Assembly (NCBI RefSeq): GCF_055900595.2
Contig: NZ_CM148325.1
Direction: 5' to 3' (one strand)
Length of the DNA: 64,000 nucleotides
In this document: positions 3,430-48,042 of the stretch, piece by piece
Position numbering within the stretch: the stretch's first letter is position 1
How the letters are laid out: every line of letters begins with the position of its first letter
Translations under genes and position numbers: made by a program
Notes under the pieces: model-generated
What the model saw: only the letters and a program-made list of their open reading frames with translations
Database searches by the model: none
What the model was told of the DNA's origin: nothing

Positions 3430-4565
3430 CCTTTTTTCCCTCCACTGTTTTTGAGCGTCAGCACCGGACGCAGTCGCGCGACAGGAATAATTAAACCGGC
3501 CTGCACCAGACATTGCACCACACTTTCAGCCGATTTATAGGCTTGTGGCGCTTCTTCAAAGATGAGTTGTTTATCGCGACAAATTACCCGACTGCCAAGT
3601 TCAGTACGTGAGAGTTGCGTCGCCGTGTATTTCGCTGCCAGACGCCCTTTACACTCGGTGCGCCCCCATTTACGCCCTGCCCCATGCGCCAGTGAGTGAA
3701 GCGTTTTTTCGTTCGCAACAGGTTTAACCAGCCAGGAGTAATCACCGCGTGAACCGGGAATAATCACCAGACCGTTGTCATCCGGCGTAGCCCCTTTACG
3801 GTGTAACCATCCTTGTTGATCGCCGATTCGACATGCGCTAACAAAGTTATGCGCCACATCCAGAACCGAATTTCCGTTGGCCTTAACTTGTTGCATTATG
3901 CGCAAAGCGATCAGCTGGCGATTAATACGCGCAAACGCCAGCGCATCATCATGTTCCGCAATATAACTTAGCGCGTCGTCACTGCCTTCCGGCAAACCAT
4001 GATGCGAAAACGAGGCAATATGCCGCTGTAAAATAGACTGCCCTAAACCACGCGAGCCGCTATGGACCAGCAGTTGCAGATGCTGCGCATCCAGACCTGA
4101 CAGTGCAAACAGTTCCGCGTCGATGATTTGATCAATCTGTTGCAGTTCTGCAAAGTGGTTACCGCCACCGATAGAGCCAAGCGCGCAGCGCCACGGATGC
4201 TGTGCAAACGCTGACGGCAGGTTTTCCTCCAGCCAGCTTTCTTCAGCAACGTCATCCAGCGCAGATAATCGCTTTTCAAACTTATCGGCGTTGTATTTAC
4301 GCGCGAGAATATCTGTTTGCCATAGCGCCATACCGCAGCCGATATCATTGCCGACCAGTGCCGGGTAAAAACGGCCTACGGAGAAGAACGCTGCGCCAAT
4401 CGGATAGCCGCGTCCGGGGTGCAAATCTGGCATCCCCACTACGCGCTGCATGTTGGGTAAATTTGCCGTGGTGTGTAATTGTTGGATCGCTGAACTCTCG
4501 ATCCACAGGTCATCAGATGCGATGGTAAATACCGCATCGGATAAGGGACGAATATATTTGCCCAT
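3426..4565 (-). CDS. rtcB: RtcB-family RNA ligase (RtcB2-type, paired with prfH)
   Basis: 379-aa [26 protein letters not shown]...[17 protein letters not shown]... recognised as RtcB family; translationally coupled to prfH. Confidence 0.85.
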
Positions 4566-26436: not shown

Positions 26437-28656
26437 TTACTGTGGATTTAGCGCCAGATGGGTGGGTCCATCGAGGGTGATAGTGCCGTCTGAATTCATA
26501 ACAAGAGTGCTTTTTCCGACAGTCAACTTTATCTGCGTTGCTGCGGTAAGGTGTATCGCCCCGGTTTTTGACGTGATGGTGATATTCCCTTCTACCGTCT
26601 CCGTGCAGGTTCCCGTTTCTACCGTCACCTCGCGTTTACCCGTTTTCACCGTCAGAGACTGGTCGCCTTCCGTTACGGTAATATTCCGGTTGCCTTTGAT
26701 GGTTTCGGTATGCTTACCATCAACAAATTCCGTGCGGTCGATTTTTACCGTGGATGTTTCGTTATGAATGATGGTTTTCGTCCGATCTGCCTTTACCGTG
26801 TGTGTTTCGTTATTTTTCACGACGGTATTCAGATCTTTCTCCGCAAGAAACCTCACTTCTTCCGCCCCCGTTTTATCGTCAAAGCGCAGCATGTTTCCGT
26901 TGGTCGCCCCCCCCTGTAACGAGTGGCTGAATATCCCGCTCTGCGACGCCATGCCCGGTAGCCCCCACGGCGGCATGGTGTCCTGGTTGTAGGTGCGCCC
27001 CACGATAATCGGTAGATCCGGGTCGCCATTTTTGAAATCCACCAGCACTTCCTGGCCGATGCGCGGGATCTGGATCATGCCGAATCCTTTACCCGCCCAC
27101 GGATAGCTGACGCGGATCCAGCAGGAGCTGTTTTCGTCATTATTACCGTAACGATCCCAGCCAAACTGCACCTTCACCCGGCCATATTTATCCGTCCAGA
27201 TTTCCTGCCCTACCGGGCCGGTGACGATGGCGCTCTGCGGGCCTTTGGTGTGGGGTTTGCTCAGGGTTCGTTGTGGGCGGTAAACTTCGCGGGTGGGATG
27301 CAGTTCAAACGTGGTGACATAGGTAAAATGCTGATCCTGGCCGCTGTGCTGCGCGTTGTCCCGTAAAAACAGCGTGGTTTGTACCAACAGATATTCCTGA
27401 TTAATTTCTGCCGTCGGGTGATTCATCAACGTAAAGGTGTACCCGGTCATGAGGGTACGGATATGACCGGCCCCATGTGCCCGGCTGCCGGGGCTGCGCT
27501 GCGCTTCCATACGAATGCGCGTCAGCATCTCACCTTCGCCCGTAGTGAAGTAATCACCAGGCCATTCATAATGCTCATATTCAGCATGACCGGTATTACG
27601 CGGACTAGCCACGGTACTTTTAAGCAGCGAACGAGGCTTCATAAAATCAAAATCGTCCATCACCCACTTTCCAGTACGCAGTCTCTCACTGGCCGTAATG
27701 GTGTGGATAAATTCTTTGTCCAGTTTCAGCCCTTCCTGGTGCCACTCCACCAGTGGCGAGTCAGGGCACGCTTTATGACCATTGATGGCATCCGTCAGCA
27801 CCAGCGTATGGCAGTTCTCGCTGTGCTCAAACCACCAGTAGATTCCCCACTCCTGCATCAGGCGCTGGATGAAATCGAAGTCGGTTTCACCATACTGCAC
27901 CTGCCAGACGCGGGGTGGATAATTTTCCACCAGCCGCTTTTCCACCGGAAAGGAATATTCATCCAGTACTTCATCGAGAATATCCACCACGGTTTTGTTC
28001 TGGAACGCTTTGTAGTCGCTGGTATGGGTCAGCAGCTTCAGCCATGGCTCAATGCGTAATTCATACGTTACCGAACGGCCCTCATGGCCGACCACCCTCG
28101 CCGCCGTCACCAGCCCGCTGATATACCGTTTTCCGCCACCGTCCAGTTCGATACTGACGCACAGGTCTTTGCCTACCATGGGCTGAAGCGGCAGGTTGGC
28201 CGCGGGGGAAACGTATCCCAGGTTCAGGGCGTCCGGCGTTTTAAGCTGTACTGTGTAGGAAAACAGATTCCCAAGCCCTTCCGAACCATTCATGCCTGCG
28301 AACAGCAGCATCTGCGGCGGCACCGAACCACCACTTACTGTGACGTTATGCGCCCCCGGACCACCGGCTGCAAGCGACGCCGCCGCATCCTGAACTGCAC
28401 CAGCCATATCCGATATCCCTGCTGCTGCGGCGGCGGCTTGCGCAGCGGCTACTGCGGCTTTAACCAGACCTGACGGTTCCGGCAACGCACCAAACAGGTC
28501 CGCCACTGCCTGTTCTGCCATCTGCTCGGCGGCATCAGCTACATCGGTTGCGGCTGAACCTGTGCTCATACTGCCACTTTCGCCAGCTATTGGTGGTGTG
28601 GTGATGACGGGTCCACCGTTTCCAACTGGTTTATTACCCGTAGATACAAAACTCAT
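26437..28656 (-). CDS. vgrG: T6SS spike protein VgrG (TssI) with ~110-aa Ala/Gly-rich N-terminal extension
   Basis: 739-aa ORF with gp27/gp5-like regions (e.g. [15 protein letters not shown]) and C-terminal beta-helix repeats; canonical VgrG N-terminus begins after residue ~110. Confidence 0.9.
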
Positions 28657-29831: not shown

Positions 29832-30751
29832 TTACGAGTATTGCCCCTTCAGCCGCAGCGCATCCACATACCGTCCTTCACTGCAGGGCAAGATTACGAA
29901 AGCCCGCCCCGCAAGGACTGACGCGAGGTAGTTTCTGTCCATGGCTGCTTTTATCATCTTACGTCTTAACCCTGCCTTGGTTTCGCCGTACTGCACCTGC
30001 CAGGCGCGGGGTGGATAATTTTCCACCAGCCGCTTTTCCACCGGAAAGGAATATTCATCCAGTACTTCATCGAGAATATCCACCACGGTTTTGTTCTGGA
30101 ACGCTTTGTAGTCGCTGGTATGGGTCAGCAGCTTCAGCCATGGCTCAATGCGTAATTCATACGTTACCGAACGGCCCTCATGGCCGACCACCCTCGCCGC
30201 CGTCACCAGCCCGCTGATATACCGTTTTCCGCCACCGTCCAGTTCGATACTGACGCACAGGTCTTTGCCTACCATGGGCTGAAGCGGCAGGTTGGCGGCG
30301 AGGGAGACATATCCGAGGTTCAGGGTGTCCGGGGTTTTAAGCTGTACTATGTAGGAAAACAGGTTTCCAAGCCCTTCCGAACCATTCATGCCTGCAAACA
30401 AAAGCAGCTGCGGCGGCACCGCACTACCACTTACTGTGACGTTATGCCCCCCGGACCACCGGCAGCAAGCGACGCCGCCGCATCCTGAACTGCACCAGCC
30501 ATATCCGAGATCCCTGCTGCGGCGGCTGCGGCTTGCGCAGCAGCTACTGCGGCTTTAACCAGACCTGACGGTTCCGGCAACGCACCAAACAGGTCCGCCG
30601 CGGCCTGTTCTGCCATCTGCTCGGCTGCATCAGCTACATCGGTTGCGGCTGAACTGGCGCTTACAGCACTACTTTCTCCGGCTATCGGTGGCGTGGAGAT
30701 AGCTGGCCCACCGTTACTGCCAGATTTATTACCCGTAGATACAAAACTCAT
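29832..30751 (-). pseudogene. vgrG: Truncated, frameshifted vgrG duplicate fused to H-repeat and tagF 3' remnants
   Basis: Two ORFs (30431-30751 and 29832-30419) match the first ~270 aa of the full vgrG; frame broken at a C-run near 30445-30455; 3' end reads ...[24 protein letters not shown] (H-repeat protein C-terminus) then ...[10 protein letters not shown] (tagF C-terminus). Confidence 0.75.
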
Positions 30752-32206: not shown

Positions 32207-32680
32207 CTACTCATCCGTACAACCCAGCCCCCGGCGCTGAACCACTTCACTGGCAAACGTAGCTCCGGTTTTTTTCATTATTCCTTTTTGTATTTTTTGC
32301 AGCGCGGGAAATGAGATTCTCCTGCATGAATCCTCTTCCCATATATCACCAGTTACAGGGCTAACTGAAAATAGTCCCCACACATCTGTCGCTCCGGCGG
32401 AAGGAGAATCATAACCTACCCCAAAACTAAAATACCCAGGATGATACAGGTTACCTTTTTTATCTTTCAGAGAACCGTCAAGAAAAAACCCAGACAATTC
32501 CACATTATATTTTTCATTTTTTAGTGAAAAAACCAATAATGCCTGCGCCTGTATTTCAGTAAGACCTGACTGGTTAACAGTCGTTAGATCAAACCGCGGC
32601 ACATTCCTGATAAGAATTTCAGCACAACAATTCACGGACACGACCATGAAAAGCAATACTGATATTAATTTACAGGACAT
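32207..32680 (-). CDS. Putative periplasmic immunity protein for the adjacent GH73-like effector
   Basis: 157-aa ORF with signal-like N-terminus MSCKLISVLLFMVVSVNCCA; overlaps effector stop. Confidence 0.5.
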   Translation of the reverse strand: MSCKLISVLLFMVVSVNCCAEILIRNVPRFDLTTVNQSGLTEIQAQALLVFSLKNEKYNVELSGFFLDGSLKDKKGNLYHPGYFSFGVGYDSPSAGATDVWGLFSVSPVTGDIWEEDSCRRISFPALQKIQKGIMKKTGATFASEVVQRRGLGCTDE

Positions 32681-33135
32681 GTTATTCTCCGCTTAACCAT
32701 ATTAATCACCCCCACTAACTCACTAGCATAACCGGTATGGCCGCCATTACTGTTTTTACCTGAATTAAAACCAGAATCAATCAATGCCTGCGCAAATTGC
32801 TCCGGAGATTTTTTATTTCTGACCGCATTACCAAATCGGATTGCAAAGGACTTTCCGCTAGTTGAAAAAGAGGTATAAGTGGCAACCCACACTTGATTAC
32901 TCCCCAGCGGGTGAACCTGTCCTGACTGTAAAGGTGCCGGACCATGCATGGAAAAGTAGTTATTGTATTCTGTCGCGATTCTACCCTGCCCGTAAAAGGA
33001 CTCCTTTGCAGCAAGCCCCAGGATATTTTCCACAGGCACATCAAGTTGCTTAGCGATTAATTCACATTCTTTCAGATATTGCTGTACAAACCTGACTGCA
33101 CCAGTGTTATTACAGGCTTTATCATAAGACCCCAT
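32665..33135 (-). CDS. Putative T6SS glycoside-hydrolase effector (GH73/FlgJ-like glucosaminidase motif)
   Basis: 156-aa ORF without signal peptide; LGLAAKESFYGQGRIATEYNNYFSMHG resembles the GH73 catalytic-Glu region (A-x-E-S-x-x-G ... NN-x-F-G) as remembered; directly downstream of tagF. Confidence 0.5.
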   Translation of the reverse strand: MGSYDKACNNTGAVRFVQQYLKECELIAKQLDVPVENILGLAAKESFYGQGRIATEYNNYFSMHGPAPLQSGQVHPLGSNQVWVATYTSFSTSGKSFAIRFGNAVRNKKSPEQFAQALIDSGFNSGKNSNGGHTGYASELVGVINMVKRRITCPVN

Positions 33136-42524: not shown

Positions 42525-42753
42525 TTCCTTATTTAGAATTACTTAAAAATAACCTCTGATTTATCTGTACATCTGGATACAGGTAAACCATTGCCGTACA
42601 GAACCCCCTCTCCTTAATTTCAGAAGAACAGAAGGCTGTATAATTTCCGGTACTGAAATACCGGGAAGATATTTATTTACCTTATAAATAAATCATCAAA
42701 ACAATAATTTTAGCCCTGCGTTTCTCACTCAATATATTCACAAAATAAATAAA

Positions 42754-44292: not shown

Positions 44293-44838
44293 TTAGTCTG
44301 CTGTTCCTGTTTCACCTGATAAGACACTTTCCTGTTGAGCGACAGGTTTTGGCGCACTGGCCAGAGCTTTCAGTAACGTAGGGTCTTGTAATAGTTTGTT
44401 GATAAGATTTTCTGCTCCCGCTTTACCATCCATATACGTTTGTAGGTTGGCAAGCTGAGTACGCGCTTCCAGCAGCTGGTTCAGGGCATCCACCTTACGG
44501 GCAATTTGCGCAGGCGAAAAATCGTCCATATTCTCCAGCGTGATATCGACCATTAACTGCCCTTCGCCCGTCAGCGTATTGGGGACAGCAAACGCCACGC
44601 GCGGCGCAATGGCTTTCATCCGCTCGTTGAAGTTATCGATATCAATATCAAGGAATTTACGATCGGTGACCGGTGGCAGCTCTTCGCGTGGTTTACCGGC
44701 CAGATCGGCCAGCACTGCCATGACAAACGGTAGTTCGATTTTTTTCTCGGAGCCATAAATCTCAACGTCATACTCAATCTGCACGCGGGGCGCGCGGTTG
44801 CGGGCAATAAACTTCTGCGCGCTGTTGTTGATAGCCAT
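44293..44838 (-). CDS. tssB: T6SS contractile sheath small subunit TssB (VipA)
   Basis: 181-aa ORF recognised as TssB. Confidence 0.9.
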   Translation of the reverse strand: MAINNSAQKFIARNRAPRVQIEYDVEIYGSEKKIELPFVMAVLADLAGKPREELPPVTDRKFLDIDIDNFNERMKAIAPRVAFAVPNTLTGEGQLMVDITLENMDDFSPAQIARKVDALNQLLEARTQLANLQTYMDGKAGAENLINKLLQDPTLLKALASAPKPVAQQESVLSGETGTAD

Positions 44839-44899
44839 AATCCTTCATTTCCTTATCAGTGAGCCGACGACCACCAGGGGAGCGGTTCGACGGTACAGT

Positions 44900-45190
44900 T
44901 TAAAAATCATACGCAGAGAGTATTTTTATAATCTCTTTGTTTTCTTTGTACTTTTCCCGCAGCACAGGGAGTGATTTCTTCGCTGGAGGACACCAGGTAT
45001 CAACCCCCTTTTCGATGTCTCTTTTATCCTTCTCTGGTAAAGAACTGTCCCATTCACCAGCAAGATGCTGGCACATTTCCGCATTACTCAGAAAATGCTG
45101 CACATCCTGTGGTAAAGACGGTTCCCCCTGAACACTGAAAGCGAACATCATTAACAGGAATGTCCACAACACCGGATAACGAAATGTCAT
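44900..45190 (-). CDS. Small predicted secreted protein of unknown function within the T6SS operon
   Basis: 96-aa ORF with signal peptide (MTFRYPVLWTFLLMMFAFSVQG) and paired cysteines; between clpV and tssB. Confidence 0.45.
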   Translation of the reverse strand: MTFRYPVLWTFLLMMFAFSVQGEPSLPQDVQHFLSNAEMCQHLAGEWDSSLPEKDKRDIEKGVDTWCPPAKKSLPVLREKYKENKEIIKILSAYDF

Positions 45191-45408
45191 ACTTAATGTC
45201 CATCAATTGACCAGTGCATGAGATATGCTCTGGCGGGAGGGCGATATGTTGCAGAGATACTGCCCCTTGCACGCGCATTACCAAGCGCGCGCAAAAAATT
45301 TTCTACCGATGCACGAAAAGTCCCCTGCAAATCATTAGTGGAAGAACTTACAGGAAAGCGACTGACCCACATTGCGCCACTTAATTCTTTTGCCATAAGG
45401 ATGCTCCA

Positions 45409-48042
45409 TTAATCCGTTTCAAAAATAATCTGTTCATCCTCATCAACACGAATGCGGATTTGCGTGATGGCCGTTTTCTCTGTCATCGCCTGCAACCAAT
45501 AACGGGACAGTTGTGGGAGGATATGTTGTTCGATATAGCCGATGAGCAAACGAGCGCCGGTTTCGTGCATCGGGCAGCGCGACACAATATGCGTAATCAG
45601 TTCATCGCCATACACCAGTGAAACGCCATGCTGCTCCGCCATCCGAGCCATCAATCTGCCAAGATGCAGGCGGGCAATAACACCACGCGCGGTCTCATCC
45701 AGCGGTAAATAAGGAATAACCGTCACACGCCCCAGGAAAGCCGCCGGGAAGTGTTTACGTAACTCCGGCATTAACGCCTCTTTTAGTCCTGCCGAATCAG
45801 GCATCAGCGCCGGATCCTCACAGAGCTGGCTGATAAGTTCCGCCCCCGCGTTAGTAGTCAACAACAGCGTGGTATTTTTGAAATCGATGTGGACACCTTC
45901 GCCGTCCTCCATCGCGCCTTTATCGAATACCTGGTAGAACAACTCGTGGACGTCGTGATGGGCTTTTTCAATTTCATCCAACAGCACTACACTCCAGGGG
46001 TGACGGCGTACGGCTTCCGTCAACACACCGCCTTCGCCATAGCCGACGTAGCCGGGCGGCGCGCCTTTCAGCGTGGAGACGGTGTGAGACTCCTGAAACT
46101 CGCTCATGTTGATGGTGATCAGGTTCTGCTCACCGCCGTAAATAGATTCCGCCAGCGCCAGCGCGGTCTCGGTCTTGCCGACACCGGACGGCCCGGCCAG
46201 CAGAAAGACGCCCATCGGTTTACGCGGGTCGCCTAACCCCGCCCGCGCGGTCTGAATACGCTCGCCAATCTGCGCCAGCGCATCCATCTGCCCGGTAACA
46301 CGCTGCGCCAAACGGGTGGGCAATTCCAGTATCTGACTGGCTTCATCTTTCACCATCCGTCCGGCGGGAATACCGGTCCAGTCAGAGACAATCTCTGCCA
46401 CCACGGTTGCACTGACTTCCGGGTACACGACGGGGTTTTCACCCTGCCAGCCTCTTAATGCCGTTTCTGCCTGTTGTAGAGTGATTTCGTCGCGCTCGCC
46501 AGGCGCTGCGCCGCGTTGCTCCTGTAAACTGCGAACCAACTCCAGTTCCTGCTGCCACCGCGCTTCGGTGTCAGAAAGATCGGCATTAAGCGATATAATC
46601 CGCGCCGTCAGTACATCGCCCCGCTCCGAGCGGATACCCATTTTTTCCTGCTTTAATAACAACTCCTGCTCCAGTTCGGCAGCGTTGAGCTGCTGGCGCA
46701 GATACTGGACTCTCGCAGGCGGGGTATGCAGCGACAGCGCTACACGGGCCGCCGCCGTATCCAGCAGGCTGATGGCCTTATCCGGTAGTTGCCGGGCCGG
46801 AATGTAACGGTGAGAAAGCTGTACGGCGGCACGCACGGCCTCATCAAGGATCAGCACGTCATGGTGTTTTTCAAGCGTGGTGACTAACCCGCGTACCATC
46901 TCAACAGCCGCAACCTCTTCCGGCTCAGCAACCTGCAATACCTGAAAACGCCGGGTCAGCGCCGGATCCTTTTCGATATGGCGTTTGTACTCGCTCCAGG
47001 TGGTTGCGCCGATGGTGCGCAGGGTGCCACGCGCCAGCGCCGGTTTCAGCAGGTTGGCAGCATCCCCCGTACCGGATGTACCACCAGCGCCCACCAGCGT
47101 GTGAACTTCATCAACAAAAAGGATCACCGGCTGCGGCGAGCGCGCGGCCTCTTCCAGCAACGCTTTCAGGCGGGATTCAAATTCACCCTTCATGGAGGCC
47201 CCAGCCAGCAGCGCTCCAACATCCAGTGACAGCAATCGCACGTTACGCAGTGACGGCGGTACTTCCCCCCCGGCAATCGCCAGCGCGAATCCTTCCACCA
47301 CTGCCGTTTTCCCGACCCCCGCTTCGCCGGTCAGTAGCGGGTTGTTCTGGCGACGGCGCAGCAGAATATCCGTCATAGTACGGATCTCGTGTTCGCGACC
47401 GGTGACCGGATCGATATTGCCTTCACGGGCCAGCGCAGTCATGTCCTGGCAGTATTTCGCCAGCGCGGATTTGCTTCCGGTTGATTCGCCGGCAAAGACC
47501 TGGCTAGCTTCCCCCGGTACTGCAGAATTTAAATCCGAGCCGTCATAAGGCATTTCTGTTAATTCAGGAGATGAAGTGATTAAAGACGGAAGAATATCTA
47601 ATAGTTCATCTACCGGTAGCTCTGCCAATGGCGCACAAATATTTTTTAACACCCGACACAATTCTGGCGTGGTTAACCAGGCAAGTAATAACCATCCACT
47701 ACGAATTTTTTGATCGCCAAAGCGGATACTTGCTAACATCCAGGCTTTTTCAACTGAAAGATCGATATGATGGGAAAAATCGTTAATTACACTCGCTCCG
47801 GCAGGCAATATATTCAATTGCTGAATTAACGCCTTCTCAACATCAGCAGATGTTATTTGATAATGTCGAAGCACATTGTGAATGTCATTCTCTGGTTGTT
47901 GTATTAACTGATGCAACCAATGCGTCAGTTCGACATAAGGGTTAGCGCGTAATTTACAGAACGTCGTCGCAGATTCCAAAGATCTAAACAAAGATTTGGT
48001 TAGCTTTCCATACAGTGCACTGCGCGAAACAGGAGTGTCCAT
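45409..48042 (-). CDS. clpV: T6SS AAA+ ATPase ClpV (TssH)
   Basis: 877-aa ORF with two AAA+ modules (Walker A GEAGVGKTA and GPSGVGKTE). Confidence 0.95.
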   Translation of the reverse strand: MDTPVSRSALYGKLTKSLFRSLESATTFCKLRANPYVELTHWLHQLIQQPENDIHNVLRHYQITSADVEKALIQQLNILPAGASVINDFSHHIDLSVEKAWMLASIRFGDQKIRSGWLLLAWLTTPELCRVLKNICAPLAELPVDELLDILPSLITSSPELTEMPYDGSDLNSAVPGEASQVFAGESTGSKSALAKYCQDMTALAREGNIDPVTGREHEIRTMTDILLRRRQNNPLLTGEAGVGKTAVVEGFALAIAGGEVPPSLRNVRLLSLDVGALLAGASMKGEFESRLKALLEEAARSPQPVILFVDEVHTLVGAGGTSGTGDAANLLKPALARGTLRTIGATTWSEYKRHIEKDPALTRRFQVLQVAEPEEVAAVEMVRGLVTTLEKHHDVLILDEAVRAAVQLSHRYIPARQLPDKAISLLDTAAARVALSLHTPPARVQYLRQQLNAAELEQELLLKQEKMGIRSERGDVLTARIISLNADLSDTEARWQQELELVRSLQEQRGAAPGERDEITLQQAETALRGWQGENPVVYPEVSATVVAEIVSDWTGIPAGRMVKDEASQILELPTRLAQRVTGQMDALAQIGERIQTARAGLGDPRKPMGVFLLAGPSGVGKTETALALAESIYGGEQNLITINMSEFQESHTVSTLKGAPPGYVGYGEGGVLTEAVRRHPWSVVLLDEIEKAHHDVHELFYQVFDKGAMEDGEGVHIDFKNTTLLLTTNAGAELISQLCEDPALMPDSAGLKEALMPELRKHFPAAFLGRVTVIPYLPLDETARGVIARLHLGRLMARMAEQHGVSLVYGDELITHIVSRCPMHETGARLLIGYIEQHILPQLSRYWLQAMTEKTAITQIRIRVDEDEQIIFETD

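Follow-up and report, generated by a model that had tools for sequence, protein, structure and literature searches.

Among the closest described counterparts of the gene pair considered here are the T6SS effector–immunity pairs Tae4/Tai4 (Ssp1-Rap1a, Ssp2-Rap2a) and Tae2/Tai2. In these systems, as proposed for the present locus, a small, leaderless cargo effector is followed immediately 3′ by a small, Sec-exported immunity protein in the same region of the cluster. Tai4/Rap proteins are all-helical and contain disulfides, and small cargo effectors can be carried in the Hcp lumen. Such gene pairs often lose the effector and retain the antidote, and orphan T6SS immunity genes are known in Vibrio, Bacteroidales, and others. 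To our knowledge, the T6SS toxins of E. coli and Salmonella that target peptidoglycan so far comprise Tae2, Tae4, Tge2, and Tlde1.

The enzymes with which the putative effector of this locus is best compared are the LAS peptidases. These include Ply500 and LysB4, both L-Ala-D-Glu endopeptidase endolysins, as well as ChiX, VanY, VanX, and LdcB, and they share with the full-length locus protein an SxHxxGxAxD motif and a C-terminal D/E-x-x-H motif. The latter protein, of 187 residues when intact, differs from them in falling below the family sequence thresholds, in being linked to the T6SS, and in being paired with a putative immunity gene. The copy in the window, that is, the whole stretch of 64,000 nucleotides analysed (contig NZ_CM148325.1 of RefSeq assembly GCF_055900595.2), further differs in having no catalytic core.

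Literature searches for a T6SS effector of the M15/VanY/LAS type paired with this immunity protein turned up a single report, a bioinformatic study of Salmonella. Blondel et al. 2023 (Front Microbiol, PMC10469887) described a tssH-tssB module in 18 of 60 Salmonella SPI-6 clusters and put forward an unannotated 32-residue ORF with similarity to an L-Ala-D-Glu endopeptidase (ChiX-like) as candidate effector, with a signal-peptide ORF, given as 146 residues, as its putative immunity gene. The 96-residue ORF of the window lies at the same position (clpV/tssH, module, tssB) and encodes a signal-peptide protein 82% identical to the Salmonella one; by sequence comparison, it is the E. coli ortholog of this previously proposed immunity candidate. 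The published endopeptidase-like similarity also agrees with the LAS fold suggested below. The two accounts differ in the length of the immunity ORF, which is 146 residues in the paper and 96 across the family, and the deletion found in the window is different from that in Salmonella and smaller (360 bp).

The ORF between clpV and tssB

The 96-residue ORF is present between clpV and tssB exactly as first noted, on the minus strand and with an ATG start (Table 1). The original prediction had the flanking genes right but overlooked a second ORF of 67 residues, which occupies the remainder of the clpV–tssB gap directly 5′ of the first. The 2-nt spacing between the stop codon of the upstream ORF and the ATG of the 96-residue ORF recurs in Salmonella (L085) and Pectobacterium (L003), and such an arrangement would allow translational coupling. 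A search for promoter-like or terminator-like sites on the minus strand from clpV to tssB found none, with counts no different from those in shuffled sequences, and the module may be co-transcribed with clpV and tssB.

Table 1. Coordinates of the module and its neighbors in the window
Feature	Position	Strand	Basis
tssH/clpV, neighbor 5′ of the module	45409..48042	-	Pfam AAA_2/ClpB domains
67-residue ORF, in-frame deletion remnant of a putative 187-residue LAS/VanY-type zinc peptidase	45193..45396	-	alignment to the full-length gene of E. coli AR_0077
Deletion junction; of the 9-bp direct repeat CACTGGTCA, read on the minus strand, a single copy is left	45208..45216	-	alignment
TAA stop of the remnant ORF and 2-nt spacer ahead of the ATG of the 96-residue ORF	45191..45195	-	sequence
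96-residue ORF, putative periplasmic immunity protein	44900..45190	-	ATG start; ORF list and sequence
Signal peptide, codons 1-22 of the 96-residue ORF	45125-45190	-	by inspection
tssB (VipA), neighbor 3′ of the module	44293..44838	-	Pfam T6SS_VipA, E=6e-58

The anticipated signal peptide is borne out by inspection. The leader MTFRYPVLWTFLLMMFAFSVQG, followed by EPSLP at the start of the mature chain, has the n/h/c pattern of the Sec type, with R4, a hydrophobic core, and V-x-G at positions -3/-1, which places cleavage between VQG and E. A hydrophobic N-terminus is common to all 90 relatives in the alignment, some of which carry a lipobox (LLSGC in Pectobacterium). The product is most likely a Sec-exported periplasmic protein with a mature part of 74 residues and about 8.5 kDa. 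The mature part contains two cysteines, C40 and C67, in keeping with the description of a cysteine-containing protein. These are the sole invariant columns of the family, while G45, E46, L77, K80, and Y81 are near-invariant (90-100 relatives aligned).

Close homologs of the 96-residue protein number 47 and are confined to Escherichia, Salmonella, and Citrobacter. Across 1.84 billion representatives, a search with the family profile retrieves 582 related clusters, defined at 50% identity (E<=1e-3), and most of 150 family clusters among the matches listed are 95-110 residues long. A Pfam run on 90 members matched no family. Pairwise dN/dS of the gene lies between 0.1 and 0.27 in all informative comparisons. 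The homologs, the profile clusters, and the dN/dS values together mark the ORF as more than a chance reading frame. Absence or disruption in related clusters, which would have counted against the original prediction, is not seen in E. coli: the module region is found in 117 of 5426 complete genomes (megablast of 44700-45500) and tssB of this cluster is matched in 116, so the module is near-constant within the rare SPI-6-like cluster of E. coli.

The mature product is predicted by AlphaFold (AF2) to consist of helices only, with a pLDDT of 95.5 and a pTM of 0.81 from a 100-sequence alignment. Three helices span approximately precursor residues 28-46, 53-80, and 85-92, the first of which carries C40 and the second C67, so that a probable C40-C67 disulfide would tie these two together. 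The most conserved segment, C-x-H-[LF]-x-G-E, runs from the end of helix 1 into the following loop. Neither sequence nor fold similarity to Tai4 was found in a comparison of the 96-residue protein with the Tai4/Rap family.

The string WCPPAKK of the 96-residue protein resembles the active site of StoA/ResA and raises the idea that the product is a fragment of a thioredoxin-like thiol-disulfide oxidoreductase. The NCBIfam model StoA_CxxC reaches E=7e-7, yet at 29 bits against a cut-off of 210, and 26 of 27 matches in a search of PDB sequences belong to the thioredoxin family (best E=0.003). The CxxC active site is nevertheless incomplete, as WCPPA is missing the second Cys. The motif varies across the family, including W66, P68, and P69, the family profile found no thioredoxin, and the predicted model contains no strand with which to meet the thioredoxin fold. 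Because of these four features, the resemblance of WCPPAKKSLP to StoA/ResA/Trx is judged lineage-specific and fortuitous, and homology to thioredoxin or StoA, which the unconserved motif, the profile result, and the all-helical model leave scarcely credible, was rejected.

Deletion of the upstream gene in E. coli and Salmonella

Most matches listed for 44700-45500 among complete E. coli genomes span about 1160 bp, against the 801 bp of the window. The upstream gene of E. coli AR_0077 is 564 bp long and encodes 187 residues (WP_083575636) annotated as a “peptidoglycan-binding domain-containing protein”, and alignment to it shows that the window copy has cleanly lost 360 bp in frame. In intact genes, two copies of CACTGGTCA flank this segment. 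The remnant is without residues 63-182, including the SxHxxGxAxD zinc motif, and cannot be an enzyme because H120, D127, and D178 are deleted; the zinc-ligand motifs of LAS/M15-like peptidases are present in full-length homologs and absent from the window copy. In the intact AR_0077 locus, the 96-residue gene likewise lies immediately 3′ of the peptidase gene. Since the adjacent 67-residue ORF appears to be the remnant of the cognate effector, the 96-residue gene would here be an orphan immunity gene.

In E. coli, 108 of the 117 genomes carrying the locus keep the 360-bp segment, and about 8% are without it. The identical deletion junction occurs in at least six complete E. coli genomes; strains with it are LHM10-1, VE-T9, CP52E, 6EVA, R32_14_1F, and GF4-3, with pig, human, goat, and guinea fowl as sources. 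The shared junction reflects either one spreading allele or recurrent repeat-mediated deletion. The deletion in the window lineage looks recent. The 96-residue protein of the window is identical to that of a strain with an intact effector, and the two genes have only three synonymous differences, so selection is unreadable in this lineage.

The arrangement published for Salmonella was recovered on a Salmonella enterica contig (L085), which has the order clpV, 32-residue ORF (MPKELSGAQWVYGVTKFVGGNTDKPHWSIDGH, 3900-3998), 2 nt, 96-residue ORF (4001-4291), and tssB. Aligned to the E. coli gene, the 32-residue ORF consists of the first 8 and the last about 23 codons of the 187-residue enzyme. On this alignment it is an independent, larger, in-frame deletion remnant, i.e., a scar, and Salmonella would, like the window, carry an orphan immunity gene. 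The joint of the 32-residue ORF shows an apparent TGGGT microhomology. In S. enterica subsp. salamae (L086, 3870-4292), the T6SS cluster is degraded and has neither clpV nor tssB, while the immunity ORF is intact. The 140-residue annotation of the salamae gene is a read-through from an upstream fragment, MSHNTLPDVCKTTPFGVPVPFP, which presumably resembles the N-terminal end of PAAR-like (DUF4150) proteins.

The two deletions bear on whether the gene is still in use. Both are in frame and keep the start and stop of the upstream ORF, as would be expected if downstream expression were still selected; in the window, translational coupling to the immunity gene would thereby be preserved. Selection for continued coupling fits both deletions, a pattern that, with two events, is only suggestive. 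The alternative that a former immunity gene has become a functionless relic, awaiting decay and conferring no benefit, is unlikely on balance, even though it accommodates an inactivated effector in the window, a deletion too recent for selection to be read, and the frameshifts in several Salmonella copies (P0031, P0039, P0041, P0044). It sits poorly with a dN/dS of 0.11-0.17 between two Salmonella copies that both are without an effector, and with two independent deletions that each spared the reading frame. Moreover, the 108 E. coli genomes that keep the 360-bp segment, and so probably an intact toxin, mean that there is something to be protected from.

The intact putative peptidase and its gene neighbors

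A word-indexed search retrieves 405 relatives of the 187-residue protein at E<=1e-3. In 36 homologs, R52, H88, H120, D127, D178, H181, W182, and S183 are invariant. The invariant residues form the motifs S-x-H-x-x-G-x-A-x-D and D-x-P-H-W-S, which in E. coli read SNHTRGTAID and DxPHWS, and on sequence comparison they are the zinc-ligand arrangement of LAS/VanY-type peptidases (H-x6-D, a C-terminal H, and a catalytic acid). The best 13 Foldseek matches of the AlphaFold model are all LAS enzymes, led by Ply500 (E=7.5e-4, the best value) and LysB4 and followed by VanY, VanX, and LdcB; TM-scores are low because the query was the fusion model described below. Family models score below threshold, with E=0.05 and 14.6 bits for Pfam Peptidase_M15_4 (cut-off 25) and E=0.024 for a VanX-type dipeptidase model (NCBIfam/Pfam), and the effector profile has no match among PDB sequences. 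The tentative assignment of the 187-residue protein to the LAS enzymes is drawn from its motifs and a modest Foldseek score.

By inspection, the 187-residue protein begins MAKELSG, without a hydrophobic leader, and a signal peptide is absent from the Proteobacteria homologs. Homologs from Paenibacillus (L049-L061, e.g., L049 5851-6576) are about 47% identical, have their own Sec signal peptide and a slightly different C-terminal motif, DDKNHFSPNGH, and stand alone with no immunity-family gene adjacent. This leader and the missing immunity neighbor suggest that the same catalytic domain serves there as a conventionally secreted enzyme.

A scan with the effector profile, limited to one genome per species, yielded 80 loci, all ORFs of which were searched with an HMM of the 96-residue family. 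A family member lies immediately 3′ of the effector homolog, on the same strand, in 36 of the 80 loci, and none was found elsewhere in the 12-kb flanks. The remaining 44 loci have another downstream gene or none (a 173-residue signal-peptide protein in Ralstonia; Alphaproteobacteria; Paenibacillus). In about 20 of the 80, a PAAR gene directly precedes the effector gene on the same strand; these loci come from Burkholderiales, Pseudomonas, Neisseriales, and Lysobacteraceae. Further T6SS genes are found at other loci, with a VgrG gene 5′ of the effector in Pseudomonas farris, Hcp next to it in a Massilia, and TssM in its vicinity in Rhodanobacter. The E. coli peptidase gene itself sits within a T6SS cluster. 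We infer from this company that the 187-residue peptidase is a T6SS cargo effector acting in the target periplasm, and the E. coli protein would be small enough to travel in the Hcp lumen.

Several loci depart from the simple pair. Effectors that follow PAAR (L009, L015, L022, L024-L026, L031, L035, L037, L044) carry an N-terminal extension, (A/Q)TLTPTxDxTPAVV, absent in the enterobacterial copies. A similar string begins an unrelated 200-residue protein in a VgrG/DUF2345 context (L092 2042-2644), and the extension may be a PAAR- or VgrG-loading tag. In an Erwinia MAG (L013 5998-6855), effector and immunity protein read as one ORF, through either fusion or assembly error, and Rubrivivax gelatinosus (L044 6494-7254) has two tandem immunity-family genes 3′ of the effector. 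The 200-residue T6SS-context protein of L092 was also considered as a divergent LAS effector and rejected (hhalign probability 0.2%). Likewise, no link was found to Re78/Re79 of Rhizobium etli, an experimentally validated, periplasm-acting T6SS pair in which Re79 is about 32 kDa; a tblastn search with a Rhizobium effector homolog against plasmids missed R. etli Mim1.

The original prediction offered the 96-residue protein as an immunity or regulatory factor. The comparative evidence supports the first of these, and nothing was found in favor of the second. A role as a periplasmic regulatory or structural accessory of the T6SS might be read from the placement of the gene between two core genes, on the same strand and probably in the same transcript. 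The gene, however, travels with the effector gene and not with the T6SS core genes. The pair is found outside any T6SS cluster in Pectobacterium wasabiae (L003), where the homolog is 49% identical and has a lipobox, and elsewhere as PAAR–effector–immunity triads. Only 18 of the 60 Salmonella SPI-6 clusters have the gene (PMC10469887), and the degraded S. salamae cluster retains it without clpV and tssB. On these grounds, an accessory role is very improbable.

More distant members of the family raise the prospect of a general periplasmic protein, such as an envelope-stress factor or an inhibitor of the cell's own LAS-type cell-wall peptidases, that acts independently of effectors and is only sometimes recruited beside them. 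Four distant members were followed up, and none lies beside a detectable LAS peptidase: three sit in housekeeping-like surroundings unrelated to the T6SS, and the fourth, in a T6SS context, is preceded by a different protein. The family may thus serve, or once have served, some other function. One of them, of 103 residues (L090 3501-3812, L091 3043-3354), lies between lolC/lolD-like ABC transporter genes and comEC on nine contigs with no peptidase nearby, and could represent an orphan immunity gene or else point to an effector-independent function; another follows a LysR regulator. These standalone copies favor a general role, as does the excess of the 582 clusters over the effector-linked cases examined. 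Close relatives, on the other hand, all abut an effector gene (in E. coli, Salmonella, Pectobacterium, Xenorhabdus, Enterobacter, Erwinia, Burkholderiales, and others), orphan immunity genes would look just as standalone, and no housekeeping partner was identified. A general function is accordingly rated as rather improbable for the gene in the window.

Effector and immunity proteins also vary together. Their pairwise distances correlate with r=0.61, a value reached in 0 of 2000 Mantel permutations, and one that shared phylogeny can produce.

A putative orphan antidote and its bearing on the arsenal

The 96-residue protein is, in our assessment, probably the periplasmic immunity protein of a T6SS peptidoglycan-hydrolase effector that has been orphaned in this strain. 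The effector would be the 187-residue zinc peptidase with a LAS/VanY (M15-like) fold, injected into the periplasm of a rival, where it would cut peptidoglycan stem peptides, possibly at L-Ala-D-Glu. The immunity protein is envisaged to bind the effector 1:1 in the periplasm and to block its active-site cleft, probably through the C-x-H-[FL]-x-G-E stretch conserved where helix 1 ends and through the loop that follows. Recombination between the two 9-bp repeats would then have cost the effector gene 360 bp and every zinc ligand, so that the strain could no longer fire the toxin while retaining the antidote. Against most sister strains, in which the effector is probably still intact, the orphan gene would give protection.

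Binding was approached by prediction with a construct in which a 30-residue Gly/Ser linker joins the E. coli effector to the mature product of the 96-residue ORF (effector-GS30-immunity fusion, AF2, 33 paired sequences from the same loci). The model has a pTM of 0.81 and a pLDDT of 87.7, with the linker alone disordered. With no more than 64% of the chain contributed by the effector, this pTM may indicate, indirectly, that the complex is confidently placed.

The gene resembles other orphan T6SS immunity genes in that the antidote is kept and the adjacent effector deleted, and most conspecifics with the cluster retain the 360-bp effector segment. Unlike acquired immunity islands, it remains at its original locus inside the T6SS cluster. 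It further differs from other orphan immunity genes in the way the putative effector was lost, namely through in-frame deletions at microhomologies, one in E. coli and an independent one in Salmonella.

In E. coli AR_0077, a Tae4/Tai4 pair occupies the tssC-hcp position, just beyond tssC, whereas this gap is only about 230 bp in the window (42525-42753) and likewise in E. coli R32_14_1F. The short gap and the truncated LAS effector together indicate that the strain has lost both toxins of this part of the cluster. What looks like an intact Tge2/Tgi2P-like pair (32207-33135) lies 3′ of tssM/tagF, where the gene for a glucosaminidase-domain protein (32665-33135, minus strand) precedes that for a Tgi2PP-family immunity protein (32207-32680). 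A 195-residue ORF at 29832-30419 covers no more than positions 1-127 of the Phage_GPD (VgrG) model; it is probably a fragment of vgrG, and the full gene lies elsewhere, at 26437-28656.

A wider interpretation can be attached to the family as a whole, which we consider a nearly even proposition, just short of probable. It holds that this disulfide-stapled three-helix family without a Pfam model consists of dedicated LAS/VanY inhibitors, that the many standalone copies outside T6SS loci represent pre-emptive immunity, and that the toxin is repeatedly lost in Enterobacteriaceae by in-frame microhomology deletions that spare the translational coupling to the antidote, which would make the published 32-residue ORF a scar and, for this toxin, Salmonella and the window strain defended “cheaters” and not attackers.

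The effect on the field would be incremental, since effector–immunity pairing and orphan immunity genes are already well established. If the proposed function is correct, an effector class of LAS-fold zinc peptidases and its immunity family would join the known T6SS toxins of E. coli and Salmonella that target peptidoglycan, and the published Salmonella annotation would be corrected, with the 32-residue candidate effector becoming a scar. The locus would also provide a clean natural example of a weapon dropped and a shield kept, which bears on the turnover of T6SS arsenals within a species.
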